A stretch of DNA of 64,000 nucleotides from an uncultured virus (IMG/VR IMGVR_UViG_3300035208_003515) (Duplodnaviria > Heunggongvirae > Uroviricota > Caudoviricetes): the IMG/VR virus record IMGVR_UViG_3300035208_003515, one strand, 5' to 3'. Below, piece after piece: positions 11,858 through 45,167 of this stretch (its first letter is position 1; each line of letters opens with the position of its first letter). Made by a program: the position numbers and the translations under genes. Below the pieces are notes generated by a model, which worked only from the letters and a program-made list of their open reading frames with translations, did not search any database and was not told where the DNA came from.

Positions 11858-13465
11858 CTATTGTAAAGATATTTCCGTTGACTGTAGTAAAGATTTTGGA
11901 GTTAAAGTTTCTTTCTGTAATATGCTTATATCCAGTGCAGTAGAGGTATATTGCTTTAATAAATCCGATCCCTTTACAGGATAGTCAGAGTACATACGCT
12001 TAACTTCGTTCAAAACCACCGCCCGTTCCGACATTTCAAGTTCACCCAGTTTATCCAATTTGTGATTTTTTAGAGCATTGCCGATTGTAACCGGCGCTAA
12101 CCTGGTCATTGTATAATCTGCGGCCTCTGGATTTGCTTCGATTTGGGATTTTAGCCAGTCGTAGGTTAAAGCGAAAGCGCCTTTGCCTTCTTTGCCTTGA
12201 ATACAACCTATGCCTGAGCTTACTATAAAGGCCGGTGCTGTCATATTTAATCGCCAATCCCCCATTTTATCTGAGGTTTGGACAGGGATTTCACGGGAAA
12301 ACTTCAATCCGTCCACTTCGATTGATAAAAGGGCATCTTCAGCGTGGTTGGAGATTACAAAATTAGCGACCTGTAGTTTAGTTTGATCTTGTACCCAGCA
12401 GTACCAGGGGAGATTGTAGAGCTTGCCCTCTTTGGTATCATCCCCATTGCCGAAGGTTTCAATGAGTTTACCGGTGAGGCCGACTAAAATGCGTTTGATT
12501 ACCTCCCGCTCAAATCCCTTCAAATATTGCTTCCACTCAAAAAGCCTTTCAACGTGCTCACGCAGCGGGTAGACTAAATCCCCATCAGGTTTCCAGTACC
12601 AGGCATCGGTAATCTTGAAGCGACCTTCGCCGTTATCGTAAAGTTCCCGAATGTGAGCGTTGGTCAGGTAATCAGGGCGTTCGCCTACGGGTGTGTAGTC
12701 TATGGTTTGGCTTTCACTGTCTTTATGGGTATAGATGACTGAGTTGAAGTTTCTTTCAACATCTACTACCCCTCTACAGAAGCCATAAGGTACTTTGGAA
12801 GGGGAGTAGAATTTATCACTCTTAAACCACGTCCCATATCGGGTGTCTATTAAATTCGCTGTGTGGTAGGAGAAGGCAGAGTTTACATCATAATCGTAGG
12901 TCTCGAAGTGCCCTCGTTGATGCGCCTCCATCCAACCACCATGTAGACATTTATGAGCATAGTATTGTGCTTCTGGAGGAATATCAATAGGTTTCGGAAG
13001 GTCTAAAGTAGTTAAAATCTCTTTCTGGTAGGCCGCTATGGGGCTTGACAGTGTAGCCGGATGAAGCTCAAGGCGTGATAGCACATCATAAACCCGTTGT
13101 CCTATCTCTTGGGCTTTACGGGCAGCATCCATAGAGTCAACTTCAAAGGGAAGTGAGGGATCGTATTGTGAAATATCCGAAAACTCCGCTGATTTTCCGA
13201 GTTTTATTGACAAGTAGCGGTGTCTCACGAAAAATATTGTGTAGTTATTGACAAACAACGATCCCGACTTCCAAAACTTCTGTAACTGATCTTCTGGGAC
13301 TTTCAACAGAAAACATAGGCGTGCCATTGCCCAATCCAGGTTGTAGAAAACTCTCAAAGTTTCAGGGCGGTCTTTAAGTAAAAATTCCAGATAATCTTGA
13401 TCTTCAAATGTGCCATCAGAGCAGGTCAAGATTTGACCTTGCAGGTGGAATCCGAGCACTCGCAT
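11858..13465 (-). CDS. Divergent family B DNA polymerase
   Basis: Motif A YDYDVNSAF, motif B-like KRILVGLTGK, motif C-like SIEVDG, upstream GGWME; exonuclease acidic residues not evident. Confidence 0.75.
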   Translation of the reverse strand: MRVLGFHLQGQILTCSDGTFEDQDYLEFLLKDRPETLRVFYNLDWAMARLCFLLKVPEDQLQKFWKSGSLFVNNYTIFFVRHRYLSIKLGKSAEFSDISQYDPSLPFEVDSMDAARKAQEIGQRVYDVLSRLELHPATLSSPIAAYQKEILTTLDLPKPIDIPPEAQYYAHKCLHGGWMEAHQRGHFETYDYDVNSAFSYHTANLIDTRYGTWFKSDKFYSPSKVPYGFCRGVVDVERNFNSVIYTHKDSESQTIDYTPVGERPDYLTNAHIRELYDNGEGRFKITDAWYWKPDGDLVYPLREHVERLFEWKQYLKGFEREVIKRILVGLTGKLIETFGNGDDTKEGKLYNLPWYCWVQDQTKLQVANFVISNHAEDALLSIEVDGLKFSREIPVQTSDKMGDWRLNMTAPAFIVSSGIGCIQGKEGKGAFALTYDWLKSQIEANPEAADYTMTRLAPVTIGNALKNHKLDKLGELEMSERAVVLNEVKRMYSDYPVKGSDLLKQYTSTALDISILQKETLTPKSLLQSTEISLQ

Positions 13466-13486
13466 CCGTGCCTCCTTATTTTCTGT

Positions 13487-14629
13487 TTAATTTGGCGTGA
13501 TAAGCAGTTTATAGCAAGGCAACAAGTTATTAGCGACAACCATTTTCTCGCTATTCATAATAATCCTGAAGTGTGCTATCCAGTAATCTCTATGAGTCCC
13601 AGTCTTTGCATGGCATGACCTACATAGAGTGATAAGGTTCTGTGGGTCGCAGTTGCGTTTATTATAATCAATGTGGTGGACACATAACTTAAGCGTACTG
13701 CTACATGAGTAGCAACAGTTACCATCTCTGCTTTTAATAGACTTCTTTAGCCATCTGTTGAAATCAGGTGTATAGTATTGGGCATCCCTACCGCCTCGCC
13801 AACATGGATTATTTGCCCCTGATCTTTTTTCATGGAATCCAGGCTTCCTCCACATTTGTTTACTAGATTTGCTCAGTTTTAGTTTGGTATCAGCAGAAAC
13901 TATTCTGCCTTTACAAGCCTGTCCTACTTTAAGTTTATGTTCGGTAGAAAGTTTTCGGCCTGTAAGCGCTTGGCTAATTTTTTGTCTACTTTCAATAGTG
14001 CGATGGCTACCTTTGTTGTTTTCTTGCATCTCTATTAGCTTCTCTAAAGACTTTGCGGAAAGTGGTTTTCCTTTTTTGCCTAAGCTTATTTTGAGTCTAG
14101 CTTCGGCAGTATGGCATACCCCTTTCTTGGCTATACTTATCTGCATCCGTTTCTTTGGAGTTCTATTTGCCTCAGCTATTTTCGCTTTGTGTTCAGCAGA
14201 GAGTGACACACCTTTATGTGCTTGGCTCATTTTCAGTCTAAATTCAGGTGTTCTACGTAATGCCACGTGATTTGCTCTACGTTTAGCGGTAAAAGGTACT
14301 CCTTTATGGTTCTGACTGAGTTTCAATTTAGTTTCAGCAGTATGAGGATGCCCAGGCTTTCCTGTCTTTGATAGACTTATCTTTAGTTTAGTTTCAATGG
14401 AATGGTGTGTACCTCTCCTCGCTTCCTGTGCCTTTCTTAGTGCAGCCATTGAATTTTCAGAAGCTGGTTTACCTTTTTGGGCTTGGCTCATATGGAGTTT
14501 GGCTTCATCCGAAAGCGACTTACCTTTCTTTGCTAAACTTATCTTCAACTTAGTTTCAGCAGAACGTGGTATGCCAATCTTCGATTGGCTAATGTGTAAT
14601 CTGTGCTCAGCAGATAGTATTCTCTTCAA
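13487..14629 (-). CDS. Homing endonuclease with many NUMOD3 repeats and C-terminal HNH
   Basis: Repeated (H/R)(S/T)xETKLK(I/L)S units; RDGNCCYSC...VHHIDYNKRNCDPQNLITLCRSCH. Confidence 0.9.
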   Translation of the reverse strand: MKRILSAEHRLHISQSKIGIPRSAETKLKISLAKKGKSLSDEAKLHMSQAQKGKPASENSMAALRKAQEARRGTHHSIETKLKISLSKTGKPGHPHTAETKLKLSQNHKGVPFTAKRRANHVALRRTPEFRLKMSQAHKGVSLSAEHKAKIAEANRTPKKRMQISIAKKGVCHTAEARLKISLGKKGKPLSAKSLEKLIEMQENNKGSHRTIESRQKISQALTGRKLSTEHKLKVGQACKGRIVSADTKLKLSKSSKQMWRKPGFHEKRSGANNPCWRGGRDAQYYTPDFNRWLKKSIKSRDGNCCYSCSSTLKLCVHHIDYNKRNCDPQNLITLCRSCHAKTGTHRDYWIAHFRIIMNSEKMVVANNLLPCYKLLITPN

Positions 14630-14640
14630 TTAATATCCTA

Positions 14641-17600
14641 TTAATCTGGTCTATGTGGTATATTGCGAGGCATTACAGTAGGCTTAATGCCACGAGAATA
14701 GCTACCGCCTAGCGAAGCTCTGACCCTAGCTAATTTTAGGAGCCTCCGAGCCAAAGAATTATCGGTCTCCCTCTTTCCCCGAATCCCTACACTTTGCTCA
14801 ATTTGGAGCATATCAAATGCGCTTCGCTTACTCCGATGCTTTTCACTGTAGTAACTGCCGATTAGATAGGCTATCCTGCGGTCATTCCACCCCGCTTCTT
14901 TGAGACTTTTAACCCTGCGTATTCTGTTACGAATCATGTCCTGGAAATTTGAAGCGTTGAAATTCAAATCCTGTTGCGTTCCGTCTATGGCTACAGCCTT
15001 GTCAAAGTCCTCTATCTCACGGGGAATGAAACCTGATCGGCGTAGGATGTCCTTTTCTTTCGGAGTGAGTGCGCCCATTATTTAATCATCCAACTAAATC
15101 CGATTTTAAATCCAGTCTTAGCTAGCATTGTATCTACTACAGCAGTAAAAAGTGGGCTATCCTTAATACCGTAAACACAAAAGAAATGAGGCAGTATTTG
15201 GTTAGCTGGCATTTTGGTTTCGGAAATACGGGAAACCCAATGGTCAACCAACTCATCAAATGTCCATAGTGTGAACGGATACTTTAAATAGTGTTTTCTT
15301 TGCCTCATTTCACCCTCGCCAGTTTAAAGTCCTCTTCATCCGCTTCTTTAAGTAGATAACCAATGAACTTTTCTACCTCTGGTACTGTAACCTCCCCTAC
15401 TCCAAGTATATTCTCAAAGTTGGGCAGGGTTAGATACTGGTCTATAATTTCCTTTGGAAGAGGCAGCCGGTCATTATCAGCAAGGAATTGTGAGATATCT
15501 TTAATAGCCACTTCACCTATAAATTCCATTACTGAAGTACGTCCTGTGGTTTTATCACGGATGATGGAGTGGAGAGTTCTTAATTCTACTTCGGTCATTA
15601 GAATTTACCTATACCTGGTATAGTAATCGAATGTCCCTGAGACTTCATAATCATAATATACACGAAATATAAAGCTATCGCTGCTAATATTATACTAAAT
15701 ATGATGCCCTTCTGCTTGTACCACGGCGGCTTTACCTTTGGCTCAGGCTCCTCAATAACAGGCTTCGACCTTTTAGTAAATGTAGGTACGTTGGGATTTA
15801 CTGGCTCTTCTACCGGCGCAGGATAAATATTCTGCGGTTGTGAATATTGTTGCTGGACATACGACTGTGAAGATTGCTGGTAGTTTTGTATAAGGAACTG
15901 GTAGGGATTAGGTTGAGTCTGGGGATTCCAGTTCACAAGTTCAGGAAAAGCAGTTAAGACTTTATTCGTCATATTTACTAACCATATGGTAGTCTCATAT
16001 AGTTCAAACATCTGCTTCTGATAATCAATGGCAGTGGTCTTTTTCGGTTGGAGCTGTTCCTGTGGCTCTTCTGTGGGCATCTGCATACTCATAAACTCTA
16101 CTCACTTCTTATTGATGAGCTTTTCAATTCGCTCTAAATGGTATCCTATGAAAAAGTATAGTGAAAAAATCAATGCTAAAAGTGCCCAGTCGTGCATGTT
16201 AAAAATCATCCATAACTCAGCAGCTATTGCCAGTAACACGATTGATACTATTAGTGGTATGTACTTCATTCTGTCACCTCGTCATAAATTTCTTTAACTT
16301 CAACCACAGTCCACCAAAGCTACCCTTAATTTTTTCCTGCAACTTAGGATTACGCTTATAGGCTGTGTAAAAGACTACTCCTAAGACAACTAAGACAGGG
16401 ATAGATATATACCAGAAATATACGGCAGCATATACTACGGCTGCACAGGCCATAATTATAATAGCAGGACGGTTATTTTCTTTTTGCTCAGTCATCACAA
16501 ACATCCTCACATTCCCATGCCTTGACCTGTTCAAGCAGGCCGATTACTTCTAAACCGTTAAGCCCTGCTACTTTCCATGCGATTTTACCATCGTGATCCT
16601 GTGTAATAACTAATATACCATCTACATTGGCCTTGTCTTTGATAACATCGTTCAATAGAGAATTGATTTCATTTTGTCCTAATAGATCGCTAACTGTGAT
16701 CTTCTTGGATTTGGGGAGTTTAAAGACACGCTGCTTCATGCAAATACCTCCGTCAATTTTTTCTCAATCTCAGGCCAGGTCTCAGCACCTTCAATAATAA
16801 TCTGTGTAGGATAGAGATCAGAGGGTCGATAGTGTACTACATAGCCCTTCTTTTCTATCGCTGACTTTATTTTAGCATAGTCAAGGCCAGCGACATTGCG
16901 CTCTAACTCTATGTTAAGGATTAACAACATGGCGATCTCACAATGTTATAACATAGTGGCAACCAGCATCTAATTTGTAATCATTGTAGAAAGTAATAGT
17001 GATATAAGTCGTGTTGCCAACGTGGTTCAATTGTTGTGTGTATAGGGTCTGGTCTAAAATGATAAGTCTGCCTTTTGTTGAATGAGACGTACAGGCAAGG
17101 TTAGAGCACACACATATAAATAACGCTACTATTCCAAGATATATAAGTATATCAAATAAAATGTCTGTTTTTATCCCTTTTACCATTTTATCCTCCAATG
17201 TGCATTATTCGTTGTCCTTATAGCGAATATAAGCAACGTGGTATCTCCGATATTAGAACTTCCCTGTTCCGATACTAAAAGATATGCAAGATAGTAAGAA
17301 AACAAACAAGTAGACAGACAGTGAAATTCTATTAATAGTCGAATACATTGCAGAGTATTCGGGGAATTTGCGGAATGTGATGATTACGCCACTTACAAAG
17401 CCTAATGCTGCAAGTACAATAGGGATAAGATTAACTTGCTCATTACTAAATATGATCTGCCCAATAATACTTGATAGAAATACGGTAGTGAACCCTGCCA
17501 AGCCATTAAAGAATCCAACAAATAAAAATCCTCCAATCCCCAATTTGTCATTTCCATCGTCTGCTATATTGTGCATTGTATAGTTCCTCCTGTTTTGCGC

Positions 17601-20689: not shown

Positions 20690-21610
20690 TTGGATACTAT
20701 GGAAATAAAAACCTGTTCTAAATGTAATCAAGAGCTGCCGGTGGAGGCCTTTCGTAAGAAGAAAGGTTGCAAATACGGAGTTGCTGCTGTTTGCAAATCT
20801 TGTCTTAATGCTGTGGTAAATGAATGTCATTATGGGGAAGGGATTACAAAAGTCTGTAGTACCTGTAAACAAGAATTACCATTAGAGCAGTTCAGTAGGC
20901 ATATCCGCATGAAAGATGGCGTTAGGGCACGATGTAAAGGGTGTGAGGCTAAACGTAGTGCTGTTTATGACAAAACAAAGCAAGGGAAATCTCGTTTTGA
21001 GCGCTTTAGAAAAACAGAAAAGGCAGAAGCTATAAGGCAGCGTTATCAAGGTAGCCCAAAGCAAAAAGCGTGTAAAAAGAGACACGAAAAAACTCCTAAA
21101 TGCAAAGCTACAAGGGATGCATACAGGGCTTCACCAGAAGGTGCTGCTAAAACTAAAGCCACAAATCAGAAGCATAAGAAAACTGAAAGACACAGGATTA
21201 CTACACACCTTTATAATCAAAAACGCAGTAAAATAGCGGGTGTCCGGTTAGATGCAGCCATACGAAGTGGCATATGGTTAGGGTTAAAAGGTAAAAAGAA
21301 TGGGCGTAAATGGGAATCACTCGCAGGGTATACTCTTAAAGAATTAATGGATCATATCGAGAACTTATTCCAACCAGGGATGACTTGGGATAATTATGGA
21401 ACGTGGCATCTCGATCACGTGATCCCAAGAGTGGCATTTTTCTATACAGAGGCCGAGGACAATGATTTCAAGCGATGTTGGGCGTTAGATAACCTACAAC
21501 CGTTATGGTGGCAGGATAATTGTAGGAAGCATTCTAAAATCATTAAACCATTCCAACCTACACTTGATTTACTGTTTAAGAGCAAACATTCACTTGACAA
21601 GATTAACTAA
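20690..21610 (+). CDS. Free-standing HNH homing endonuclease with tandem Cys4 zinc fingers
   Basis: KTCSKC..CKSC, KVCSTC..CKGC; GMTWDNYGTWHLDHVIP...NLQPLWWQDN. Confidence 0.88.
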   Translation: MDTMEIKTCSKCNQELPVEAFRKKKGCKYGVAAVCKSCLNAVVNECHYGEGITKVCSTCKQELPLEQFSRHIRMKDGVRARCKGCEAKRSAVYDKTKQGKSRFERFRKTEKAEAIRQRYQGSPKQKACKKRHEKTPKCKATRDAYRASPEGAAKTKATNQKHKKTERHRITTHLYNQKRSKIAGVRLDAAIRSGIWLGLKGKKNGRKWESLAGYTLKELMDHIENLFQPGMTWDNYGTWHLDHVIPRVAFFYTEAEDNDFKRCWALDNLQPLWWQDNCRKHSKIIKPFQPTLDLLFKSKHSLDKIN

Positions 21611-21682
21611 AGTATGCAATGCTAAGATATTGACCTCACTTCAAATGAAAAGGCATTGTTTTGATGCCAGGTAACTTTTAAG

Positions 21683-22352
21683 ATGGTTCTTGATGGTAGA
21701 GATGCCCCCATCCAGGCAACTGGAATGGTGAACCCTGTAAACTCGGTGAACCCTAAACCTTTTAGGCATGGGAATACCGAACCAAGCATGAGAGATAATC
21801 TCAAGGCGTGCGTAGAGAACGGACACAGGGCATCCAATTTGGATGAAGGTACGTTCCGAACCAAAGCGAAAACTTTGGAACAGCACAGAAATGATGCTGT
21901 CACCTGTAAAGGTAGTAACATTTTTGATCGTTTCAACCATAGTCGGGATCATCGGCTTCGCCCTTATGGTGGGCTTCATTGCCTCCATGAACACCAGCGG
22001 CATGACCACGATGGACATCCTGGTGCTGGGCTTCATCCCGACCCTTTTCTTGATCGCCATCCTCTACGGGGTAAAGAAAAACTGCCCACAATTTCAGCAA
22101 TGAGATTGCACAAACAATCCGTAAATTCGGTGAACCCTAAACTCTATGAGCAAGGGAATACCGAGCCAAGCATGAATCTTAGATTCAAGGCGTGTGTAGA
22201 GAACGTACACGGATCATCCCAAGTGGATGAAGATTCGTTCCGAACTGCGAAGAAATTTGCAGAACCAACCAGAAATGAGTTGGTCGCCTGTTAATCAGGT
22301 GTAACAAATTTGAGTCCGTATGATTACTGGCGGTCGCAGCGGCGGCATCTAA
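21683..22352 (+). CDS. Intron-split 66-aa two-helix membrane protein, putative major coat protein (exons 21683-21697, 21927-22072, 22313-22352)
   Basis: Splicing at the P1/P10-defined sites gives one open frame: MVLDGIVSTIVGIIGFALMVGFIASMNTSGMTTMDILVLGFIPTLFLIAILYGVVRMITGGRSGGI*; C-ending codon bias; strong 3' hairpin. Confidence 0.82.
21698..21926 (+). mobile_element. Group I intron 1 (229 nt, ORF-less)
   Basis: P1 exon GGU with IGS GCC (U-G at splice site); P10 GAU/AUC; P2 GCAA loop; P3 CCCUGU/ACAGGG; P4 UCGGU/ACCGA; P7 GAACG/CGUUC; P8 CAUCCA/UGGAUG; P9 hairpins; terminal G at 21926. Confidence 0.88.
22073..22312 (+). mobile_element. Group I intron 2 (240 nt, ORF-less), paralog of intron 1
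   Basis: P1 exon GGGU with IGS GCCC; P10 ACU/AGU; P2 CAAUUUCA-GCAA-UGAGAUUG; P3 AUCCGU/ACGGAU; P7 GAACG/CGUUC; terminal G at 22312. Confidence 0.88.
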
Positions 22353-22360
22353 GCCGTTTC

Positions 22361-22400
22361 AGGGGAGAGGCCTCAATAAAAGGGGCTTCTCCCCTACTTT
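22361..22400 (+). terminator. Strong hairpin after the spliced gene (terminator or mRNA stabiliser)
   Basis: AGGGGAGAGGCCTC / GGGGCTTCTCCCCT 14-bp stem, then ACTTTT. Confidence 0.7.
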
Positions 22401-22418: not shown

Positions 22419-22553
22419 ATGGAGAAACAATTTAAGACTTATACAGGAGCAGAAAACTTCTGGGCTAAAATGCGGAAGTCAGGATATAATGCTCGTGTTG
22501 TGACACAGAAAGGCAAATGGACAGTCATTTATACTAAACCAAGAAAGAAATAA
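22419..22553 (+). CDS. Small basic protein (44 aa)
   Basis: Not in track; AGGAGG RBS; MEKQFKTYTGAENFWAKMRKSGYNARVVTQKGKWTVIYTKPRKK. Confidence 0.75.
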   Translation: MEKQFKTYTGAENFWAKMRKSGYNARVVTQKGKWTVIYTKPRKK

Positions 22554-22565
22554 CAGGAGGACAAA

Positions 22566-22670
22566 ATGAAGTTTCAGGGAATAAAGATAAGCAAAGTGAA
22601 AAAGTACAAGGGTGTTACCCTTAAAGGCGGTAAAAAGAAAAAGGCCGACCTTATCAAAATAAAACTATAG
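22566..22670 (+). CDS. Lys-rich peptide (34 aa)
   Basis: Not in track; AGGAGG RBS; MKFQGIKISKVKKYKGVTLKGGKKKKADLIKIKL. Confidence 0.7.
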   Translation: MKFQGIKISKVKKYKGVTLKGGKKKKADLIKIKL

Positions 22671-22680
22671 GAGATTAGTT

Positions 22681-22803
22681 ATGGCGAAAAAGAAAGACGC
22701 ATTAGGTAAGATACTGGACTTTAAAGCTGTGAGACTTCATGGCTTAAAGAAAAAGAAGGCAGTAAAGACACCTAAACAGACTAAAATACACTTTGCATTT
22801 TAA
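22681..22803 (+). CDS. Lys-rich peptide (40 aa)
   Basis: Not in track; AGGAG RBS; MAKKKDALGKILDFKAVRLHGLKKKKAVKTPKQTKIHFAF. Confidence 0.7.
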   Translation: MAKKKDALGKILDFKAVRLHGLKKKKAVKTPKQTKIHFAF

Positions 22804-22813
22804 GGAGCAGAAT

Positions 22814-22972
22814 ATGGCTAAGAAAGTGGTCAGCATTAAATATAATGAAGGCCCGTTCACTTATAGGGCTGATGCTGTTAAAGTGCAGAGGCAATATAAA
22901 TTGCGTGGTCACAAGGCAGTAATTGTTAAATTAGCAAAGGGATACCGTGTTGCTGTCACTAAGTATAAATAG
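22814..22972 (+). CDS. Small basic protein (52 aa)
   Basis: Not in track; AAGGAG RBS; GPFTYRADAVKVQRQYKLRGHKAVIVKLAKGYRV. Confidence 0.75.
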   Translation: MAKKVVSIKYNEGPFTYRADAVKVQRQYKLRGHKAVIVKLAKGYRVAVTKYK

Positions 22973-22981
22973 AGGTGTGCG

Positions 22982-23431
22982 ATGGCCTTTAATTTAAAGA
23001 GATCAGCAGGGGAACTCTATAATAAGGGTGTATTAAAAGCCCGTGAATTAAGGGATGAGGATCAGGTTAAAAAGGGCTTAAAGGTTGCTGTTGTAGTAGA
23101 AAGGGCAGATGGTAAACGTCTCTTAATTAATACCTATGGGGTACGAGGACATGTACAAATAGATGATTTTGAAGAAGAAAGGGTCAAGAACTTCTTAGGT
23201 CATAATCTGGGGCAAATCCGTACTGCACTGAAAGCAGGGAAAAAATGGGTTGATAATAAAGAGAGGATAACCTTTGACTTTTCCACTCCGGCTAAAGCAC
23301 CATCAATGAAAACACCATCAATTAAACTTCCGAAAAAGCGTAAGAGTGCGCCGGTCAGACGGATAGTCACGCCACGATCTCACAAGCAGGGATTTTATTC
23401 AATAACAGAAGGCAGGTGGGTAGATTGGTAA
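22982..23431 (+). CDS. Basic hypothetical protein
   Basis: GAGGTG RBS; K/R-rich C-terminus. Confidence 0.7.
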   Translation: MAFNLKRSAGELYNKGVLKARELRDEDQVKKGLKVAVVVERADGKRLLINTYGVRGHVQIDDFEEERVKNFLGHNLGQIRTALKAGKKWVDNKERITFDFSTPAKAPSMKTPSIKLPKKRKSAPVRRIVTPRSHKQGFYSITEGRWVDW

Positions 23432-23649
23432 AATGGTATCATCCTGGTGTTCAGATGAACTGGCATCACTCTGATCTAAGAGAGGTAAGACGAAGGAACG
23501 CTCTACGAGCGCATAAAGGTGATCTCTTAGCTACAGCACGGGCACTTCAACAGTTAGCTAATGTTACTAATGTAGGAGTAGTAGAGAAAGCGGCACGCCA
23601 GGATGCGGTACATTTCTTTGCGAAATATCATTCTAAGAAGGGGAGATAA
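23416..23649 (+). CDS. Basic hypothetical protein
   Basis: ORF track; R/K/H-rich. Confidence 0.65.
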   Translation: MGRLVKWYHPGVQMNWHHSDLREVRRRNALRAHKGDLLATARALQQLANVTNVGVVEKAARQDAVHFFAKYHSKKGR

Positions 23650-23654: not shown

Positions 23655-26600
23655 TTGAGATTGAAAGTATTTAAGCCTGTGATGCAGGTTTTGTTTGTTA
23701 TAGTGCTTCTACTATCAGAAGCATCAGTTTTTTTTACACCGTATAAAGTAGATGCTGCTCCCATAGTAGAGGGAAACACAGTCAGGATATCACTGAATGA
23801 TGCCTATATTGAAGCTACTCCGGCTACTCTTACATCTTCGGGGTGGGTAGATGTTACATTCTGGACACGATACTATGAAGGGCCGGTGGATGTAGTTTAC
23901 GGGTTTAATGGGTTGGATAATGTCAAAGCTGTCAATCCCCAGGTGTGGGAAAGCTATGTCCATAATAAAACACGTCAAGTTCCTGCCGTTCTAACAGGAA
24001 CATTCAAACCGGATAAAGTTATCTCAACTAATACGGCAGCACTTCGACCATTGAAGGCTGATACGGATTTGAGCCTTAATTCTAAATACACAGAGATTAC
24101 ATATGAGCAAACTGATCCAATCATAGCAAAAGCAGAACGTCAGACTATTAAATTAGCCTATGATACCTATGATTCAAAAACGGGCACGTATTCTTATAAA
24201 TACAATGGGCAGGTTGCTGAAAACTATACAGAAACTTACGTTGACTGGAATCCTAAATCACAGCCAGTCACTAATACTTTATCTCATGCAGGAGCAAATA
24301 AATGGGACGTAGCTCAATATAAATCAGTCGCAAAGAACGAAGTGCAGAAGGCAAGGGTATGGATTGACATACCTTTCAACGGCACTAATGTAGTTTCAGG
24401 CAAATATAACATCGGCATAAAACCGTCTAATTTAACACTTCAACAGGCAAAGGATCAGAGCAAATTATGGTTACTTGACCCCTGGTATAACGCAAGTTGG
24501 TTGTATCGCAAAGCTATAGTTATTGGTCAAACAGACGACTTGGGGCCTGGTATTTATTATCAAGTTAAATTGCTAATTGGAAAATCAAATGGCGCAGATT
24601 TAGAGGACTTTGATTGTGAGAATCATTGCGAGGAGGATTTCGATGACCTGAGATTCACTAAAGACGATGGGACAACCTTACTTGACTACTGGATAGAATC
24701 TTCAGGTGCATCTGGTACATCTTATCTGGCTACTGTATGGGTGGAAGCTGAAATGGAAGATGCCGCAGCAGATACTACGATATATGTTTATTATGGTAAT
24801 GTAGGGGCACCAGCAGCCAGCAGCGGCGCAAATACTTTCATTAAATTTGATGACATTGGGCGTGGCAATGATGGCGATGCTGTAGGGGGTAGCTGGACAA
24901 ATGTGAATAATGTGGAGATAGATACTGCAATATATTGGCCTGGTGCTGGCTCGTCTCGGTCAGGAAGGTGGGCTGGGACAGTTTCAGATGCACGGGTAGC
25001 GCAGTTGTCATCATCTACTATCGCAATACAATTCAGGATGCAAAAGACTGATGCGGCGGGCCCTGTGGTGTGGCATGGTGACGGCGTTACCACAATGTAT
25101 CCGGTGTTCAGGGCTACTGAGGGTTGGGAATACTACGATGGGGTGGGGTACACCAATGTTGAGACCCTGTCTCATAGTACGTGGTATCTATTCGAGTACA
25201 GGAATTTTGACTACGATGCTAACACTTTTGACATGGTTCGGGATGGTGTGGTTAAAAAAGTGGGAGCCGATATGGCGGCATCCGCATTGGGGGCTAATAG
25301 TATACGCCCATACCAGTTAAGCGGGTCTGGTGATTTTTATATAGACAATCTCATCGTCCGCAAATGGACTGCCAATGAACCTGTTTTCTCAAGCGCAGGC
25401 GTAGAAGAGGGATTCCCTACATGTGCCTTAACAGGCACAATAACTACGGCTACAGATGCAGATATAATAACAGGTGGGGAAACCATTATCTTAACATTAA
25501 CAGGTGATACGTGGGTAGCCGCAGGTGCAACTTTCAATGCAATAAGAGATGATATTATTGCAGGTATGGATTCAGCACAAAGTGAGGCAAATGGTTGGGA
25601 TGCAGAATATAAAGCTAACGCAGCAGCATATGTGGCGGATGTAGTAAGAACAAATGATACTGTAGTTACGGTTACAATGTCAGCGTTAGCAACTTATTCA
25701 GTAACAGCATCCGAAACTATTACAGTTACAGTTCCGGCAGCAGCATTAACGTTAGGAGCTGATGTCGTAGCCTCTCCCACTTTTACCATTACAAAGGTGT
25801 TACCATTAGTTTCAACACAGGCAACATCAGTAATTACTACAACCTCTGCATTGGGGAACGGAACTATCACAGATTTAAACGGCGGCGGTAATGCAACTGT
25901 TAGGGGATTTGAGTATGATGTTGATACAGGCGCACCTTATGCACATGAAGTACATGATAATGGTTCTTACGGTGTAGGAGCCTATACCAAAACAATGTCG
26001 GGCTTAACGTCAGGAGAGCTTTACTATAATAGGGCATATGCTACATCTCCCCTCGGAACTGGATACGGAACAGAGGTAACTTTTCTTACCTTGCCATCCG
26101 ATCCTGCTTCTATAACAGCAACGGTAGTCAGTGATTCTGAAATAGACTTAACCTGGCCTGCTGTTGTTTGCGGTGCTGGTACAGTTGTTAATTATTATGT
26201 AAGAGCGAATCTCGGCTCTGCGCCGACATTTAGCGGAGCAGGCGGGACAACAATTTATGATAGTACACTTCTGGCCTATAATCACACTCCACTTGGATCG
26301 GGTGAACACTGGTATTATAGGATGTGGGTTAGGATTACTGACGGAGGGTTAGAACAGTATTCGACAAACTTTGCCGCAGATGATGGTACAGTATTTATTG
26401 CTCCGACAGTCACTACAGGTATATGTTCAGGATCAGGGACTACGTGGGCGTTATTAAATGGGAACGTGACTGCAACGGGTATACCTACAACTGTGACACA
26501 AACAGGCTTTGAGTATGGGTTGACTACAGCGTATGGAACGCTATCTCCCATGAATGTAGGTTCTTTTGGTGCAGGAGCATTTTTTTCAAATCTAACAGGA

Positions 26601-28520
26601 TTATCTCCATCTACTGTTTATCATTATCGTGCAATGGCAACTAATGGAGCATGGGGGTATGGATCAGATGCTATCTTTGCAACCAAAGGCTCACCGGCTA
26701 TTACGACCTACTTTAATACTGGCAGTGATTCTTGTATGCCGATCTATGGCACTACCGTAGCTGCCCAAACATTCACAACATCAGCAACTACACAATATTC
26801 AGTTACATCTGTACGATTAGAGATGCTGAGAGTTCTAACACCTGGTACTGTTACTGTTTCGGTGAGGCGTGCTTCCGGTGGTGTCCCAACAGGTGTTGAT
26901 TTAACCAGTGGAACGATAAATGGGGATAGTTTAAGCACATCTCCACAGTGGTATGACATTCAAATGACTACAGAAACGTCTCTTGAATTAAATTCATCAT
27001 ATGCTATTGTAGTTAGTGCAGCCAGTGGAGATGCTGCTAATTATGTTTGCTGGAGATATGCTTCAGCCGGAGGCTATGCGGGGGGAAATGGAGCAACATC
27101 AACAGATGGCGGAATCACATGGTCAACTTCCCCTGCTGAGTTTGCAGGGTTAGGTGCTTCCCTTTCGAGTGCTCCGTATGATGATGATGCGTGGGTTGCT
27201 CCAACTAATATATATGTAGATGATTCTGTTTATGCATCCGTAACGGCAGCTACTTTTGATACTAATGATTATACTGAAGTTCTGAATGCGTCCACTTTTG
27301 GGTTTGCGATACCATCTTCTGCAACTATTACAGGTATAAAGGTAGAAGTTGACCGTTACTGCGGTGCTGGCGCAGCTAAAGATGGTGTAATCCAGTTGAC
27401 TAAAGATGGTGCTGCAAGGGTAGGAGCAAGTGCAGCCACGGCTACGGCATGGCCTGCTACGTCTACTACAGTCTCTTATGGAGGGGCTGCTGATTTATGG
27501 GGTACTACATGGACTCCAGCGGAAGTAAACACTGCAACTTTTGGTGTGCATATTGCTGCACAAGCCACAGGTGATGATACAGATGTTTATGTAGATTTCG
27601 TCAGGATAACGGTCTATTATTCGTATGATTACATGTTTGAGATATGGGGTAATCAGTCTCTTGAAATCCAGGATGCTAAAGTATTTCAATCATATAAAGA
27701 TACAGGAGATTGGTTAGTTGCAGTCAGGTACGTAAATATTTATGCTCCGTACTATGACACTTACGATGTGAAAAAGTATTTCACTCTCCAGTTAGTAGAT
27801 TCTCTTGGAAATGTTAAAGCCTCAACTGTAATGCCCGCATGGGGCAATAGGGTAGGTTCAATATATCTTTCAGCAACAACTGTGGCATCTTTGACTTACG
27901 GTGGCAGTTATAGGGTACGTATTCAAGGGACTTTTACGGGCACACCATATTCTGAGTATGCGCTTGCATCTACAGATTGGATGGGGGACGATCTTGTTAA
28001 TCTGGATTCATGGGTTATTACCTCCGCCTCGGTTTTGGGGACATATTATTCAACTACAATGACTACCTATATTGCTGAAAGAGGTGAGGTCTTAAACTCC
28101 ACGGGATCGGGGATATTCTCATCTGGTATAGCAGGGCTTTCTACTGTCCGGCCTGCCATCTTTCAGACCTATACAATACCTTCAGCTTACACACCAGGGA
28201 CTATTACTCAAGCAGGAAGATTGGGGATACCAGCATGGCAAACTAATATCGGTACTACGGGAACAGTGATGCTTACACGGTTAGGGAATATAGTTGGGGT
28301 AGGTGGTGATATAATAGCAGTAATAGCGTTTTTGATTATGATATTTATTTTAGCAGCGTTGGCTTTCCCTGCCGGACATACTACGGCTGCATTGGGTCTA
28401 TCTCTTCCAATGTTAGGTGCAGCTATATGGTTCGGTATGGACTTACTCTATATAGGAGTGCTTGCTTTAATAGCGGCGTTCCTGTTTATCAAAAACTTCT
28501 GGATTGATAAAGGTAACTGA
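23655..28520 (+). CDS. 1621-aa membrane-anchored surface protein (DUF2341-like + FN3/Ig-like repeats), putative spike/adhesin
   Basis: Signal peptide; WYNASWLYRKAI...DFDDLRFTKDDGTTLLDYWIE (DUF2341-like); L.P.T.YHYRA.ATN FN3 signature; C-terminal TMs; many N-x-S/T sequons. Confidence 0.8.
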   Translation: MRLKVFKPVMQVLFVIVLLLSEASVFFTPYKVDAAPIVEGNTVRISLNDAYIEATPATLTSSGWVDVTFWTRYYEGPVDVVYGFNGLDNVKAVNPQVWESYVHNKTRQVPAVLTGTFKPDKVISTNTAALRPLKADTDLSLNSKYTEITYEQTDPIIAKAERQTIKLAYDTYDSKTGTYSYKYNGQVAENYTETYVDWNPKSQPVTNTLSHAGANKWDVAQYKSVAKNEVQKARVWIDIPFNGTNVVSGKYNIGIKPSNLTLQQAKDQSKLWLLDPWYNASWLYRKAIVIGQTDDLGPGIYYQVKLLIGKSNGADLEDFDCENHCEEDFDDLRFTKDDGTTLLDYWIESSGASGTSYLATVWVEAEMEDAAADTTIYVYYGNVGAPAASSGANTFIKFDDIGRGNDGDAVGGSWTNVNNVEIDTAIYWPGAGSSRSGRWAGTVSDARVAQLSSSTIAIQFRMQKTDAAGPVVWHGDGVTTMYPVFRATEGWEYYDGVGYTNVETLSHSTWYLFEYRNFDYDANTFDMVRDGVVKKVGADMAASALGANSIRPYQLSGSGDFYIDNLIVRKWTANEPVFSSAGVEEGFPTCALTGTITTATDADIITGGETIILTLTGDTWVAAGATFNAIRDDIIAGMDSAQSEANGWDAEYKANAAAYVADVVRTNDTVVTVTMSALATYSVTASETITVTVPAAALTLGADVVASPTFTITKVLPLVSTQATSVITTTSALGNGTITDLNGGGNATVRGFEYDVDTGAPYAHEVHDNGSYGVGAYTKTMSGLTSGELYYNRAYATSPLGTGYGTEVTFLTLPSDPASITATVVSDSEIDLTWPAVVCGAGTVVNYYVRANLGSAPTFSGAGGTTIYDSTLLAYNHTPLGSGEHWYYRMWVRITDGGLEQYSTNFAADDGTVFIAPTVTTGICSGSGTTWALLNGNVTATGIPTTVTQTGFEYGLTTAYGTLSPMNVGSFGAGAFFSNLTGLSPSTVYHYRAMATNGAWGYGSDAIFATKGSPAITTYFNTGSDSCMPIYGTTVAAQTFTTSATTQYSVTSVRLEMLRVLTPGTVTVSVRRASGGVPTGVDLTSGTINGDSLSTSPQWYDIQMTTETSLELNSSYAIVVSAASGDAANYVCWRYASAGGYAGGNGATSTDGGITWSTSPAEFAGLGASLSSAPYDDDAWVAPTNIYVDDSVYASVTAATFDTNDYTEVLNASTFGFAIPSSATITGIKVEVDRYCGAGAAKDGVIQLTKDGAARVGASAATATAWPATSTTVSYGGAADLWGTTWTPAEVNTATFGVHIAAQATGDDTDVYVDFVRITVYYSYDYMFEIWGNQSLEIQDAKVFQSYKDTGDWLVAVRYVNIYAPYYDTYDVKKYFTLQLVDSLGNVKASTVMPAWGNRVGSIYLSATTVASLTYGGSYRVRIQGTFTGTPYSEYALASTDWMGDDLVNLDSWVITSASVLGTYYSTTMTTYIAERGEVLNSTGSGIFSSGIAGLSTVRPAIFQTYTIPSAYTPGTITQAGRLGIPAWQTNIGTTGTVMLTRLGNIVGVGGDIIAVIAFLIMIFILAALAFPAGHTTAALGLSLPMLGAAIWFGMDLLYIGVLALIAAFLFIKNFWIDKGN

Positions 28521-30382
28521 TGCGAAGGTTTATATTTGCGGTTTTATTGGCAATAGTGACAGTAGTGTCGTCAAGTGTACCTGCCTATGCCGCAACGGAG
28601 ACTATAACTGTCAATGGTGAGGGTACGCATACAAGCGGGTCATATGTGGGCGGAACAGGGGACTGGCAAAACATCACAACTAATGAAAGTCCGCCGACTA
28701 CGTATCTGTCAAATACAACTCCTATTAGTTCTACTACTATCTATCACGACTATGCGTTCAGTGATATGGTAGCTACTCCTACTTTGGTTAATAGTGTTAC
28801 GATCACTGGTGTGTTACAGAGAGTACAAGCAGCCACGCTCACGTTTTATTATTGGGATGGGGGTACGTATTACAACAGTCCATCGCTATCTGCGACTGGT
28901 GGATGGGACACGCTAACATACACATGGAATACTAATCCAGCCACAGGCGTTGCATGGACAAAGGCAAATATAGACGCAGCTCAATTCGGAGTAAAGGCTG
29001 CAACAGGTTCCTCACCTTTTGCAATGGGCTATTACTTATCTTATATGAAAGTAGACATTGATTATACTGCCGTCTCCGCCCCTTCCGTTACTACCTCATC
29101 TGCATCCTCTATTGCTGCAACCTCTGCAACAATGAATGGAGAGGTTACAGATGACGGCGGTGGAACCATAGATTACTACGGCTTTGTATGGGATACTTCA
29201 GATAAAGGCGATGGTGGTAATGTTGATCCGTCTACTCCCCCTGGTACGTGGTCAAATGGGTGGAAATCAGCAGTTGGAGATTATGGGGAAAATACATTCG
29301 ATCATTCTACAGGTGCAACTTTAATCAAAGGCACAACATATTATTATCGTGCAGCAGCACATAATGCAACAGGGTGGGAATATGGGAGTGCTGTTTCGTT
29401 CACTACGATAGGCGATCCTACAATCTCTACGTTAGCAGCTACGGATGTAGCCTCAACTACAGCCCGTATCAACTCAAATGTAACCTTTGATGGCAATGTT
29501 CTAACAGGTGAACCTTGTACAATAAGATTTGTATATATAGCAGGAACAGGATATGCAGATTATGCCGCTATCGTAGCAGGAGCGGAAACTACGGTAGATG
29601 TAGCAGGGACATGGATTACAGGGCAATCTCCCTATGCCGATATTACAGCGTTAGCTGTGTCAACAACCTATTCTTATGCGGTGAGAATAGTCAACTCCAC
29701 GGCTACATATGCTTATGGATCAGTAATGACCTTTACCACTGAGTCAGGCGTTTATACCCCGACTAATTTTACAGCCGTCCCTACAGCTTCTACAGTATCG
29801 TTACTATGGGTCAAAGGAGTAGGCGCACAGTATACCTTAGTTAAATACTCGGATGCTACTTATCCCCCTACTACGGCTGATGGAATTTCAGCGTATCTTG
29901 GCACGGGTAACTCTGAAACATTGACTGGCTTAACCCCAGGTACGACTTATTACTTTTCTGCATGGGGGTTGACTGCGGGTGTATATTCAGGAACAGCGAT
30001 TACAGCGCTTGCTACGACTTTAGCGTATGATACCGCCACTTCGACTGGAACAATAGAAGCCCCTCCATCTAACTCGTGGTGGAATCAAACCCCTTCAACT
30101 ACCAATGTAGGCTCTATCCCTATGGTTAGTGGGCTTGTACAGGCAAACGCTACGGCTTATGCTATACCAGAATCTTCACTATGGTACTTTTTATGGTCTT
30201 TATTCAGTGTAGGTATGGGTGTGTTTGTTTACGGGAGAGGTGGAAATAAACTTCCTTTAGGTTTGGGGGCAACTGCTTTGATGTTTTCTCTTGGTGCGGT
30301 ATTAGGTTTGGTTATGTTATGGATAATGGTAATATTTGCTTTAATAGGGGCAGGTTTTGCCTTATGGGGAGATAGGCGATGA
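28520..30382 (+). CDS. 620-aa membrane-anchored FN3-repeat surface protein
   Basis: Signal peptide (AYA cleavage); LTGLTPGTTYYFSAW; Thr-rich; C-terminal TMs. Confidence 0.8.
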   Translation: MRRFIFAVLLAIVTVVSSSVPAYAATETITVNGEGTHTSGSYVGGTGDWQNITTNESPPTTYLSNTTPISSTTIYHDYAFSDMVATPTLVNSVTITGVLQRVQAATLTFYYWDGGTYYNSPSLSATGGWDTLTYTWNTNPATGVAWTKANIDAAQFGVKAATGSSPFAMGYYLSYMKVDIDYTAVSAPSVTTSSASSIAATSATMNGEVTDDGGGTIDYYGFVWDTSDKGDGGNVDPSTPPGTWSNGWKSAVGDYGENTFDHSTGATLIKGTTYYYRAAAHNATGWEYGSAVSFTTIGDPTISTLAATDVASTTARINSNVTFDGNVLTGEPCTIRFVYIAGTGYADYAAIVAGAETTVDVAGTWITGQSPYADITALAVSTTYSYAVRIVNSTATYAYGSVMTFTTESGVYTPTNFTAVPTASTVSLLWVKGVGAQYTLVKYSDATYPPTTADGISAYLGTGNSETLTGLTPGTTYYFSAWGLTAGVYSGTAITALATTLAYDTATSTGTIEAPPSNSWWNQTPSTTNVGSIPMVSGLVQANATAYAIPESSLWYFLWSLFSVGMGVFVYGRGGNKLPLGLGATALMFSLGAVLGLVMLWIMVIFALIGAGFALWGDRR

Positions 30383-39559: not shown

Positions 39560-40102
39560 ATGAGAGAGCCACCAAAGAATCCTTTTAAAGAAGCAGAAGA
39601 GACTGAGCAGGAAGAGATGGCTTTGCCCAAAATCCCTGAACGGATAGCTACACCTGTTATGGCTTCCGAACTACCCAAAGTAGAAAAAGAGACAGTTAAG
39701 GGTAATGGGCATAACCCTGATGCTGATGAACAGGCACTCCAAGATAAGAAAGAGGAAGAACAGCAGAAAAAGGAAGAGGAGGAAGAGCTTGAGCGGATGC
39801 GGGAAGAGGCCGAAAACTCTAAAATCCCAGGCTCAGGCTACCTCTTTAATGTCAAGAAAAAACACCTTCCTGAAGCCACTCGCTTGAATGAAAGGGAAAT
39901 ATTTACCTTTGGGGTAGGCGCAGTACAGGATGCTGTGCTTGACCTTAATCGCAAGGAATCCGTGTTTGACATATTTGCTGCCAATATCTTCCGACTTAAA
40001 ATCTCAGCCGGTGGCAAAGGCCGTGAAGAAAATATCGCTGTCCGGCAGGTAGACGCTGAGGAAAAAGCCAATGCACGTAACGGAGCTATGAATGGCCTAT
40101 AA
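39560..40102 (+). CDS. Acidic hypothetical protein upstream of the ATPase
   Basis: Glu-rich N-half; overlaps ATPase start. Confidence 0.65.
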   Translation: MREPPKNPFKEAEETEQEEMALPKIPERIATPVMASELPKVEKETVKGNGHNPDADEQALQDKKEEEQQKKEEEEELERMREEAENSKIPGSGYLFNVKKKHLPEATRLNEREIFTFGVGAVQDAVLDLNRKESVFDIFAANIFRLKISAGGKGREENIAVRQVDAEEKANARNGAMNGL

Positions 40103-41105
40103 AATCCCTGAAGTGGTCATAATCCCCGACTCCAATTCTAAGAAGCTGTACGGGATTGAGCCTGTTATCATTACGAGAGAAGATATGACCTCAATATCAG
40201 GCTGGTATAAACTCGCAGTCAACCATGATATGTTCCTGAATGAAAGAGAGTTTAAAAACCGTGATACCTTTATGAAATACTGGATGATCTCAATGGGTAT
40301 GACAGAATATCCATTTATGATCTTCTATGGTAATGAAGGTGGTGGGAAGTCAATGGGGATGGCGGTTACGGCGCATCGTCTTATAAAATACTTTGGTAGG
40401 AAACCTACGCTGGACTTCACTCCACCGGAGGGCGAATACTACAGACCTTTTAATTCAGTCATAGTAAGGGAACAAGCTATAGAAGTCCTGCAAAAGATGG
40501 GCGATCCTGAAGGCAAAATCCCCAGGTATCAGGCTGAAATAGCGGAATTAAAGAAAACCCCTCCATTCTTCAACTTCTACGATGAGGACTTTGTAGAACG
40601 AATTAAGAACGAACTTGACCGGCTGCAAAGGACTGAAAAAGAACTCACCGCAAAGGGTGAGCAAGTCCCACAGGAAGAGTTTGAGAAATTAGTCATTTAT
40701 AATGCCGTGTTTGCTTTAGATGAAGGTGACTCATACGGTGATATCCAGGCACAGACTAATTTAATTAAACTGATCGGTAGGATAGCCCGCAGACGTAGGC
40801 ACACCCACACTACTATATTAATGGCCTATGTTGATTTAAAAGACATACCGGAGAGGATTATCTTAAATAGGGCTACACATCAAGTAATGTGTGCTAAGAA
40901 CTGGGTATATGACGGATACTGTTCTTATAGAGTGACAGACGTAAGACAGGGCGGAAGTGGCGAGTCTAAGTTCATGCATTTAAAGCCTCAAGACTGTACT
41001 CACCTTTGGAATAGTCATAACTTAGTATCAATCAGTCACGATGTTGAAATAAAGTTTGGCAATAAGGGAGCAAAGAAAAAGAAAGTCTCCGTGGAGGAAA
41101 AGTAA
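40092..41105 (+). CDS. P-loop ATPase, Zot/FtsK-HerA-like morphogenesis or packaging type
   Basis: Walker A GNEGGGKS; Walker B FALDEG; RRH arginine-finger-like motif, then hydrophobic strand and DIPERI. Confidence 0.75.
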   Translation: MAYKIPEVVIIPDSNSKKLYGIEPVIITREDMTSISGWYKLAVNHDMFLNEREFKNRDTFMKYWMISMGMTEYPFMIFYGNEGGGKSMGMAVTAHRLIKYFGRKPTLDFTPPEGEYYRPFNSVIVREQAIEVLQKMGDPEGKIPRYQAEIAELKKTPPFFNFYDEDFVERIKNELDRLQRTEKELTAKGEQVPQEEFEKLVIYNAVFALDEGDSYGDIQAQTNLIKLIGRIARRRRHTHTTILMAYVDLKDIPERIILNRATHQVMCAKNWVYDGYCSYRVTDVRQGGSGESKFMHLKPQDCTHLWNSHNLVSISHDVEIKFGNKGAKKKKVSVEEK

Positions 41106-44156: not shown

Positions 44157-44308
44157 AACACAAGCTTGTATGTCTTAGATGTGGCAAGGAATGGGAGTCA
44201 GAAGATAAGTTTGTTGACCGTTGCCCTTGCTGCAAAAGCTATAAATATGATACTCCACCAGAGTCAAATTATATTCATATAGTAAGGATAAAGAAAAATG
44301 AAGTGTGA
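44153..44308 (+). CDS. Small zinc-ribbon protein (51 aa)
   Basis: Not in track; CLRCGKEW...RCPCCKSY; similar pattern to the 18952 ORF. Confidence 0.6.
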   Translation: MKHKLVCLRCGKEWESEDKFVDRCPCCKSYKYDTPPESNYIHIVRIKKNEV

Positions 44309-44486
44309 AAAATGTGGCAGGGACAACCTATCCGAACGTGAATTAGAGGTACATTTGAAATATTATCATATGCAAGATAATAACCAGCAGCGGATTAGCG
44401 CCGGTGTATGTCCTGATTGCCGTGGGGATTTATGGCATGAAAGCGGCTGTATTTCCTGCCATTCCTGCGGGTATAGTAAGTGTTAG
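44298..44486 (+). CDS. Small double zinc-finger protein
   Basis: CEKC..H...H plus CPDC...GCISCHSCGYSKC. Confidence 0.7.
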   Translation: MKCEKCGRDNLSERELEVHLKYYHMQDNNQQRISAGVCPDCRGDLWHESGCISCHSCGYSKC

Positions 44487-44495
44487 GAGAGTAAA

Positions 44496-45167
44496 ATGAT
44501 AGCAGCAGTAATTCCAGCCTACAATTCAGAAAAGCATATAATGGATATAGTCAAGAAAACCTCTGCATTTGTTGATATAGTCATAGTAGTAGACAATAAT
44601 TCGCATGATAAAACAGCCAGGTTAGCGGAATGTGTAGGTGCTATGGTAATACATGAATATATCCAGGGTGCAGGTGCAGCTACTAATCGAGGTATGCAGA
44701 TAGCGAAAGCGATGGGGGCAGACATAGTAGTGACCTTAGATGCGGATGGTCAACATAATCCAATGGATATTCCACGGGTAGTAGAACCTGTCTTGAGAAA
44801 TGATGCTGATGTGGTATTCGGGTCACGTTTCAAGAATCAGAATGTAATCCCATATTATCGTAGGTTTGGGATTAAAGTAATTACGTTATGCTGTAATTTG
44901 TACTCAAAGGAGTGGCTAACGGATGCTCAGTGCGGGCTAAGGGCTTTCAGTAAATTCGCACTAAAGGCTTTTAATATAGAAGAGCATGGGTACGGTGTTA
45001 TGATAGAAGAGGTAATGAAAGCCAAGAAGCTCTATTTAAGAATAAGTGAAGTACCTGTGCAATGCTTCTATCACGGGTTAAAAAATGACTCACATATGAA
45101 TCCGGTTAAACAGGGGATTTTAACTTTACTCTGTATTTTGAAATGGCGACTTAAATTAATGATTTGA
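44496..45167 (+). CDS. GT2 glycosyltransferase (polyprenol-phosphate sugar synthase-like)
   Basis: IPAYN, VVDNNSHDKT, LDADGQH, GSRF, TDAQCGLRAF. Confidence 0.9.
   Translation: MIAAVIPAYNSEKHIMDIVKKTSAFVDIVIVVDNNSHDKTARLAECVGAMVIHEYIQGAGAATNRGMQIAKAMGADIVVTLDADGQHNPMDIPRVVEPVLRNDADVVFGSRFKNQNVIPYYRRFGIKVITLCCNLYSKEWLTDAQCGLRAFSKFALKAFNIEEHGYGVMIEEVMKAKKLYLRISEVPVQCFYHGLKNDSHMNPVKQGILTLLCILKWRLKLMI

Follow-up and report, generated by a model that had tools for sequence, protein, structure and literature searches.

We confirmed a hidden gene of 66 codons in a 64,000-nucleotide (nt) stretch of DNA from an uncultured virus (IMG/VR record IMGVR_UViG_3300035208_003515), referred to here as the window. 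The gene is very probably a monocistronic gene of a large, likely bacterial virus, split by two self-splicing, mobile group I introns. An earlier note on this DNA had proposed three exons of 15, 146 and 40 nt that join into one frame. These coordinates proved exact when joined by script, and give a 201-nt open reading frame (ORF) that ends in TAA. Its claim that the introns exceed the coding sequence also holds, as the two introns (229 and 240 nt) have a combined length of 469 nt against 201 nt of coding sequence. The parts of the gene are as follows.

21683-21697, plus strand: exon 1, 15 nt, ATG and four codons (MVLDG)
21698-21926, plus strand: group I intron 1, 229 nt, at site A, without an ORF of its own
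21927-22072, plus strand: exon 2, 146 nt, encoding both hydrophobic helices
22073-22312, plus strand: group I intron 2, 240 nt, at site D2, without an ORF of its own
22313-22352, plus strand: exon 3, 40 nt including the TAA stop

Natural alleles without introns

A single scan of metagenome contigs yielded 17 loci, at 14 of which the exon 2 protein is 92-100% identical to that of the window; the three weak loci (44-60%) were left unused. L004 is a duplicate of L003, and L005 showed no difference from the window over the parts compared. The matches at L001 and L002 were spurious. Exon 1 is fused straight to exon 2 in L007, L008 and P0001, the last of which is a database protein found by searching with exon 2 alone. 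Exon 2 runs directly into exon 3 in L008, L010, L012 and L013, and L008 holds the complete gene as one unbroken ORF (896-1099). Intron 1 is absent at its exact insertion point from six loci (L007, L008, L009, L011, L012 and L015), and intron 2 from four (L008, L010, L012 and L013). The database protein P0005 is without an intron at sites A, B and C, and P0004 is without the site-D intron, its sole in-frame intron lying at another site (site B). Natural intron-less alleles are available for every insertion site, and the computed spliced frames of L003 and L012 are complete as well. The start codon varies among the relatives, being ATG, GTG (L010) or TTG (L013). The exon joints in these natural alleles fall on the very nucleotides that had been predicted, which confirms the hidden gene and its splice sites, as far as DNA comparison reaches, far beyond chance.

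As had been anticipated, ORF callers miss the gene. Plain ORF listing of the window gives only an ORF of 86 amino acids (aa) that begins within intron 1 and stops within intron 2, besides a 203-aa read-through ORF. Four database entries (P0001, P0004, P0005 and P0006) are faulty ORF predictions whose start or end falls within an intron. When 1.84 billion representative proteins were searched with HMMER, 11 of them reached E<=0.001. Six intron-less homologues (P0007-P0012) are 65-80 aa long with 35-49% identity; intron-less homologues that hold the residues of exons 1 and 3 are thus present in nature, L008 among them. When four DNA runs were compared, X2 and X3 contained identical intron-bearing DNA, such as a 591-nt contig that matches 21740-22254 at every position. 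A clean intron-less joint was not found in the contigs of the four runs.

Structure of the introns

In an alignment of the two window introns 82% of the columns are identical, and the differences between their hairpins are compensatory. Judged by this alignment, the inserts are paralogous members of one group I intron family. A family profile used with nhmmer scores intron 1 at 211.7 bits and intron 2 at 208.5 bits, and finds these two copies in the window and no more. We aligned 16 of 18 complete, distinct introns, leaving out two extra introns of L013 that were found later, the L004 and L005 duplicates, and two truncated copies. RNAalifold predicts 49 base pairs (bp) from the 16 introns, 36 of them with compensatory change. 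The full group I structure has 63 pairs in P2, P3, P4, P5/5a, P6/6a, P7, P8, P9, P9.1 and P9.2, and P3 and P7 form its pseudoknot, with compensatory changes in 6/6 and 4/5 of their pairs, respectively. Pairing is found in 95.2% of 923 cells, compared with 23-36% when the partners are slid by 1-3 columns. Both sides change in 47 of the 63 pairs, and the observed values are reached by none of 500 shuffles.

The splice sites had been assigned from a U-G wobble in P1, pairing of P10 with the downstream exon and a terminal G. All three are present in both window introns, and the junctions that they set match those of the intron-less alleles. The P1 of intron 1 (GGUA-GAGA-UGCC) forms a stem of 4 bp capped by a GAGA tetraloop and includes the U.G pair; its P10 (GAU/AUC) has 3 bp and it ends in G. 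Intron 2 has a P1 of GGGU/GCCC, a 3-bp P10 (ACU/AGU) and again a final G. Throughout the alignment the upstream exon ends in GGU (16/16) and lies opposite a guide that starts with G, which gives the U.G pair at the 5' splice site. The guide is GCC or GCCC (the script picked GUUG for L009_B and L016_B), and pairs on the intron side lengthen P1 to 4-6 bp. The terminal G (omega-G) is found in all 16 introns. P10 is contiguous over at least 2 bp in 11 of the 16 and over 1 bp in one; it reaches 6-7 bp at site C, and its guide sequences differ by site. The introns of L013 score 51.6, 48.3 and 30.3 bits against the Rfam group I intron model RF00028, the highest score belonging to the site-A intron and lying above the gathering score of 50.

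From these features we propose that the gene would be expressed from its own promoter, with a leader hairpin and a terminator hairpin. After transcription each intron would fold into a group I core (P1-P9 with the P3/P7 pseudoknot), and the GCC(C) guide would pair with the GGU at the 3' end of the upstream exon to form the U.G wobble. A short, site-specific P10 would then align the downstream exon, and guanosine-initiated self-splicing would join the exons into the 201-nt frame.

Intron sites and their occupancy

There are five insertion sites within a 160-nt stretch of the gene, here numbered along its uninterrupted form, and all five sit immediately 3' of GGU. Site A follows nt 15, site B nt 36, site C nt 59, site D1 nt 159 and site D2 nt 161.

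The window and its relatives comprise 12 distinct DNA alleles with 0 to 3 introns each.

Window and L005: sites A and D2
L003 and L004: sites A and D1
L006: sites A and D1
L007: site D1
L008: no intron
L009: sites B and D2
L016: site B; identical to L009 in the overlap, 3' end truncated
L011: sites C and D2
L012: site C
L015: site C
L014: site D1
L013: sites A, B and C, with microexons of 21 and 23 nt
L010: a single intron that begins at the 5' border of site A and ends at the 3' border of site B, plus site C

The glycine codon is GGT at all eight occupied A/B sites and at 3 of 11 unoccupied ones, and its retention at occupied sites fits the requirement for the U.G pair. The L010 gene (165-804) is without the 21-nt microexon, which corresponds to seven residues of helix 1. 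This allele appears to be either the DNA equivalent of exon skipping or the outcome of recombination between tandem introns.

The earlier note had suggested that the two splicing events form a regulatory checkpoint. This is contradicted by the presence of 0, 1, 2 or 3 introns at five sites among proteins that are 92-97% identical. Because occupancy varies at a near-constant protein sequence, the introns are best read as selfish, mobile and polymorphic elements and not as a conserved regulatory device.

Neighbouring nuclease and intron mobility

Directly upstream of the gene is an ORF encoding a candidate homing endonuclease.

20690-21610, plus strand: free-standing HNH / endonuclease VII-like zinc-finger ORF, 306 aa, matching phrog_1035 'endonuclease VII' at 9.1e-29

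This ORF ends 73 nt ahead of the start codon. An HNH ORF lies directly upstream in the window and in all 11 of the loci with enough upstream DNA, and it is of two divergent types, one like that at 20690 and the other like the second HNH gene of the window at 37982. The introns themselves are 226-242 nt long and ORF-less. They have probably spread by homing at the DNA level with the help of the free-standing upstream nuclease (collaborative homing). The arrangement resembles collaborative homing as described in PMC3984707, where ORF-less introns are likewise accompanied by a free-standing HNH/Endo VII-type nuclease gene adjoining the split gene. However, the nuclease here is also found beside the intron-less L008, and two nuclease types occupy one slot. 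Given the constant 3-nt guide and the common GGU context, reverse splicing into GGU sites is a plausible additional or alternative route.

The gene family offers a compact natural experiment in intron mobility, in which homing by a free-standing nuclease can be set against reverse splicing. The mobility system combines site-adapted P10 guides with a constant 3-nt P1 guide, and includes microexons and a lost microexon.

Expression signals and selection

Three putative signals flank the gene.

21594-21623, plus strand: putative sigma-70-type promoter, with a -35 element TTGACA at 21594-21599 and an extended -10-like element TGCAATGCT at 21615-21623
21652-21668, plus strand: leader hairpin of 6 bp, just 5' of a Shine-Dalgarno-like GGAG/AGGA
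22361-22395, plus strand: terminator-like hairpin of 14 bp followed by UACUUUU, resembling an intrinsic terminator

In the 11 aligned upstream regions the TTGACA and TG.AA positions of the putative promoter are invariant. The leader hairpin is paired in 66/66 cells of 11 sequences, compared with 21-55% in slid controls, and four of its six pairs show compensatory changes. The 14-bp hairpin that had been noted after the gene is real: it has a predicted energy of -27.7 kcal/mol (z -4.3), and none of 200 shuffles folds as well. Equivalent hairpins follow the stop codon in L008 and L003, with stems that differ in sequence.

The preference for C-ending codons is also borne out, as 55% of third codon positions are C compared with 10-26% in 17 other genes of the window. 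Among the relatives, DNA identity is 73-86% and protein identity 92-97%, a pattern that indicates strong purifying selection on the protein. The suggestion that these are signs of high expression finds support in the codon bias, the promoter and the terminator hairpin. Considering the strong purifying selection together with the strongly C-ending codons, the product is probably abundant. The gene thus appears to be an example of a strongly conserved, apparently abundant viral protein that is invisible to standard gene callers, and databases hold only chimeric mis-calls of it.

The protein product

An AlphaFold2 model based on a seven-sequence family alignment has helices at residues 2-24 and 33-63 (pLDDT 84.9). 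Two helices and an N-T-S motif had been described from the sequence and both are present; as a sequon, however, the motif is kept only in part, since the asparagine is invariant in the family and Ser/Thr at +2 is kept in three of seven members. N-glycosylation of the loop was set aside for this reason. The basic tail that had been described amounts to two arginines and no more. We found nothing significant for the small protein in Pfam, PHROGs, NCBIfam or PDB sequences, and no match in the phage collection. A search of genome contigs gave no relative. No relatives of the small protein, of P0007 and P0009, or of the 149-aa neighbour described below were found in IMG/VR. The fold search against BFVD gave no matches at E<=0.001, a helical hairpin being an uninformative fold. 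The product is a two-helix membrane hairpin and probably an abundant membrane or virion component.

Genome context and host

The virus is uncultured and large (>64 kb), and the window is only part of its genome. Searches of the literature returned no paper describing the gene or the virus. The gene content of the window is viral. On the minus strand, a replication arm includes genes for DnaB, a DnaQ-like exonuclease and HNH proteins, along with a polymerase-like ORF. The DnaB is at most 31% identical to its matches in the phage collection, and tblastn against that collection found nothing for P0007, the 1403-aa protein described below or the polymerase-like protein. Within this arm (11858-15078, minus strand), the polymerase-like ORF (535 aa, phrog_11768), a NUMOD3 and HNH ORF (380 aa) and a 145-aa ORF are arranged head to tail, and may represent a polymerase gene split by insertion of a nuclease.

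The plus-strand arm starts near 18.6 kb with small membrane proteins, followed by the split gene, six basic proteins and then giant proteins.

22419-23649, plus strand: six small, very basic proteins of 44, 34, 40, 59, 149 and 77 aa, with 12-33 Lys+Arg each

In L003 the gene is likewise followed by counterparts of the 44-aa and 149-aa basic proteins, and the six may be DNA-binding virion proteins. Several tiny basic proteins at 22419-22972 and 47741-48099 share a K.GY.A.V....W.V.Y-like motif with weak SPOR-domain matches (best E 0.0013), and may form a family that binds nucleic acid or cell wall. The region 23655-30382 encodes proteins of 1621 and 620 aa, each with an N-terminal signal peptide and C-terminal transmembrane anchors, and the larger of these carries DUF2341 and choice-of-anchor R domains. 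Such giant anchored proteins are unusual for a head-tailed phage.

Further along the arm are a protein of 1403 aa, a P-loop NTPase, an STT3-like transferase, sugar-nucleotide and glycosyltransferase genes, two radical-SAM enzymes and an FtsH-like protease. The NTPase (40092-41105, 337 aa) has Walker A (GGGKS) and Walker B (LDEGD) motifs. Relatives on contigs as long as 91 kb encode versions with 69-89% identity to it, and it is a candidate for a role in assembly or packaging. Its ORF was considered as a capsid protein and rejected, the Walker motifs pointing to an NTPase. Nothing similar was found in the PDB, and its AlphaFold2 model is poor (pLDDT 51). A glycosylation set at 42585-53920 consists of an STT3/AglB-like oligosaccharyltransferase, glycosyltransferases, dTDP-glucose 4,6-dehydratase, a DegT-type aminotransferase, WbqC, methyltransferases and two radical-SAM/SPASM enzymes. 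The FtsH-like AAA+/M41 protease (60005-61462) matches TIGR01241 at 1.3e-150. This match begins at position 151 of the 598-position model, and the N-terminal part of the protein, which in FtsH holds a membrane segment, appears to be missing. At 62270-63958 there are 17 tRNA genes behind a promoter-like site, TTGACA...TATGCT, and for one gene call (63177-63251) ARAGORN reads an unusual anticodon of four bases. The 64-kb window, beyond which the genome extends, yielded no terminase, portal, HK97 or double-jelly-roll protein.

We read the host as bacterial because of sigma-70-type promoters and hairpin terminators, and consider a bacterium the likely host with good confidence. TTGACW-N16-18-TANNNT occurs 14 times in the window compared with 5.85+-2.36 expected, and none of 100 shuffles reaches 14. 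Most of these copies precede genes. The TTGAC-N17-TAnnnT layout, which the split gene shares, is found before many genes, and the terminators in the window consist of a hairpin and a U-run. The ESM Atlas clusters nearest to the STT3-like protein are bacterial, mostly Verrucomicrobiota, which serves as a lead only.

Alternative explanations

Several points weigh against our interpretation. We infer splicing from comparison of DNA. P1 is short, with only 3-4 exon base pairs, and P10 is not contiguous (0 bp) in 4 of the 16 introns. Against RF00028, intron 2 scores 31.3 bits (E 6.1e-6), short of the gathering score of 50, and Rfam gives no match for intron 1 at E<=10. The intron 2 match depends on searching the 1-kb region by itself; Rfam scans of the whole window gave only tRNAs. 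The frame of exon 1 meets no stop codon in intron 1, resulting in a 203-aa read-through ORF (21683-22294), and the site-A intron of L003 and site-B intron of P0004 are also open and in frame throughout. According to PMC3984707, many phage introns stall ribosomes by means of an early in-frame stop. The association of the upstream HNH ORF with the introns is not strict, given its presence in L008. The STT3-like protein matches TIGR04154 (archaeo_STT3) at 8.5e-58, which is below the cut-off, and this and weak TrmB and DUF7575 matches in the window hint at Archaea. The specific role of the protein is also one that we infer. The low Rfam scores of the window introns would suit a decaying pseudogene whose inserts are dead relics no longer removed. 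We find this scarcely credible, as the exons of intron-bearing alleles are still under strong purifying selection, the helices keep their pairing through compensatory changes, the guides are adapted to each site, and the U for the U.G pair is always kept at occupied sites.

The remaining alternatives concern the identity of the product and of the virus. The earlier note took the product to be the major coat protein, made under the control of two splicing events, which we regard as possible but doubtful. The gene opens a virion-like module of six tiny basic proteins followed by giant membrane-anchored proteins with signal peptides, the protein is highly conserved with a very strong codon bias, and the major capsid and packaging families sought are missing from the window. 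In addition, a His1-capsid cluster ranks fifth in the ESM Atlas search (score 0.90), again a lead only. However, no Pfam, PHROG or PDB capsid family matched, hhalign gives a probability of 0.3% against His1 VP21, and a capsid gene could sit in the part of the genome outside the window. A coat role is no more than plausible, and a checkpoint role is not conserved, intron number and position varying from 0 to 3 among near-identical proteins. It is somewhat less likely that the product is a non-structural membrane protein (holin-like lysis or superinfection exclusion) and an incidental intron target. Two transmembrane helices in about 66 aa with a short charged tail correspond to the format of a class II holin, and small uncharacterised membrane proteins of phages are frequent among the neighbours in the fold search. 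However, no lysin domain was detected among 95 window ORFs scanned against Pfam, only one of seven family members touches the holin family phrog_526 (E 0.71), and the codon bias, dedicated promoter and terminator, and high protein identity at lower DNA identity are better suited to an abundant structural protein. Less probable again, and offered as a speculation, is a new lineage of large (>64 kb) non-head-tailed bacterial viruses, constructed in the manner of archaeal spindle-shaped or pleomorphic viruses, with a tiny two-helix hydrophobic coat protein encoded by the present gene, small basic DNA-packing proteins, giant membrane-anchored spikes and its own glycosylation set; if this were true, the coat gene would be an arena for a swarm of minimal group I introns hopping between GGU sites. 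An archaeal spindle-shaped or pleomorphic virus, with the gene encoding a hydrophobic capsid protein of the His1/SSV1 type, is very unlikely; the introns would in that case be group I introns of an archaeal virus. A protein of about 70 aa with two hydrophobic helices recalls His1 VP21, basic proteins followed by proteins with a signal peptide and a C-terminal anchor are also annotated in His1, the archaeo_STT3 match points the same way, and PMC9894754 describes large spindle viruses that have both a structural and an enzymatic arm. These resemblances are set against the enriched bacterial -35/-10 promoters, the hairpin and U-run terminators, the DnaB, DnaQ-like exonuclease and FtsH-like protease encoded in the window, and the bacterial clusters nearest to the STT3-like protein. 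No sequence link to His1_capsid (PF25665) was found, with none of seven family members matching at E<=10, whereas His1 VP21 itself, as a positive control, scores 1.5e-37.

Comparison with known systems

A gene split by mobile group I introns, our preferred reading, has its closest precedent, by analogy, in orf142 of Staphylococcus phage Twort. As given in PMC10136302 and PMC11878797, orf142 (Landthaler & Shub 1999) is interrupted by three group I introns, has a 23-nt microexon between similar introns, and undergoes exon skipping; the latter source gives its product as the Twort tail tube. On these descriptions both systems have several similar group I introns in one short phage gene, and the microexon of about 23 nt between related introns has its equivalent in the 21- and 23-nt microexons of L013. 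Exon skipping in Twort takes place at the RNA level, whereas here L010 is a DNA allele without the 21-nt microexon. The gene described here is far smaller (201 nt) and is outweighed by its introns, its product is a membrane hairpin without a known family, and five alternative sites are used across relatives. Compared with the IA2 class of the Twort introns, those described here (226-242 nt) leave no room for P7.1/P7.2 between P7 and P3'. The virus lineage, in contrast to Twort, has no relative in the phage collection.

The introns share a P3-P6 core with introns in the IMG/VR contigs L020, L024, L026, L027, L028 and L032, which split Sak4-like, tape-measure and DNA polymerase genes. These related phage introns mostly carry their own HNH ORF, whereas those of the present gene are minimal and ORF-less. 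Group I introns of the Bastillevirinae average about 800 nt according to PMC11878797. A further short viral contig of IMG/VR (L022, 4435 nt) has several group I intron matches, one at 115.7 bits, along with HNH fragments, and represents a second phage locus dense in introns.

The product can be compared with His1 VP21 and SSV1 VP1, which are similar in length (about 70 aa), in having two hydrophobic helices, and in the membrane-anchored proteins encoded nearby. It differs in that no similarity to them is detectable by sequence or profile, and the host signals here are bacterial. The virus, without relatives in the phage collection, brings an unusual virion module. What sets this system apart from those described is the combination of introns that outweigh their gene, five insertion sites, a product of unknown family and a virus lineage without described relatives.

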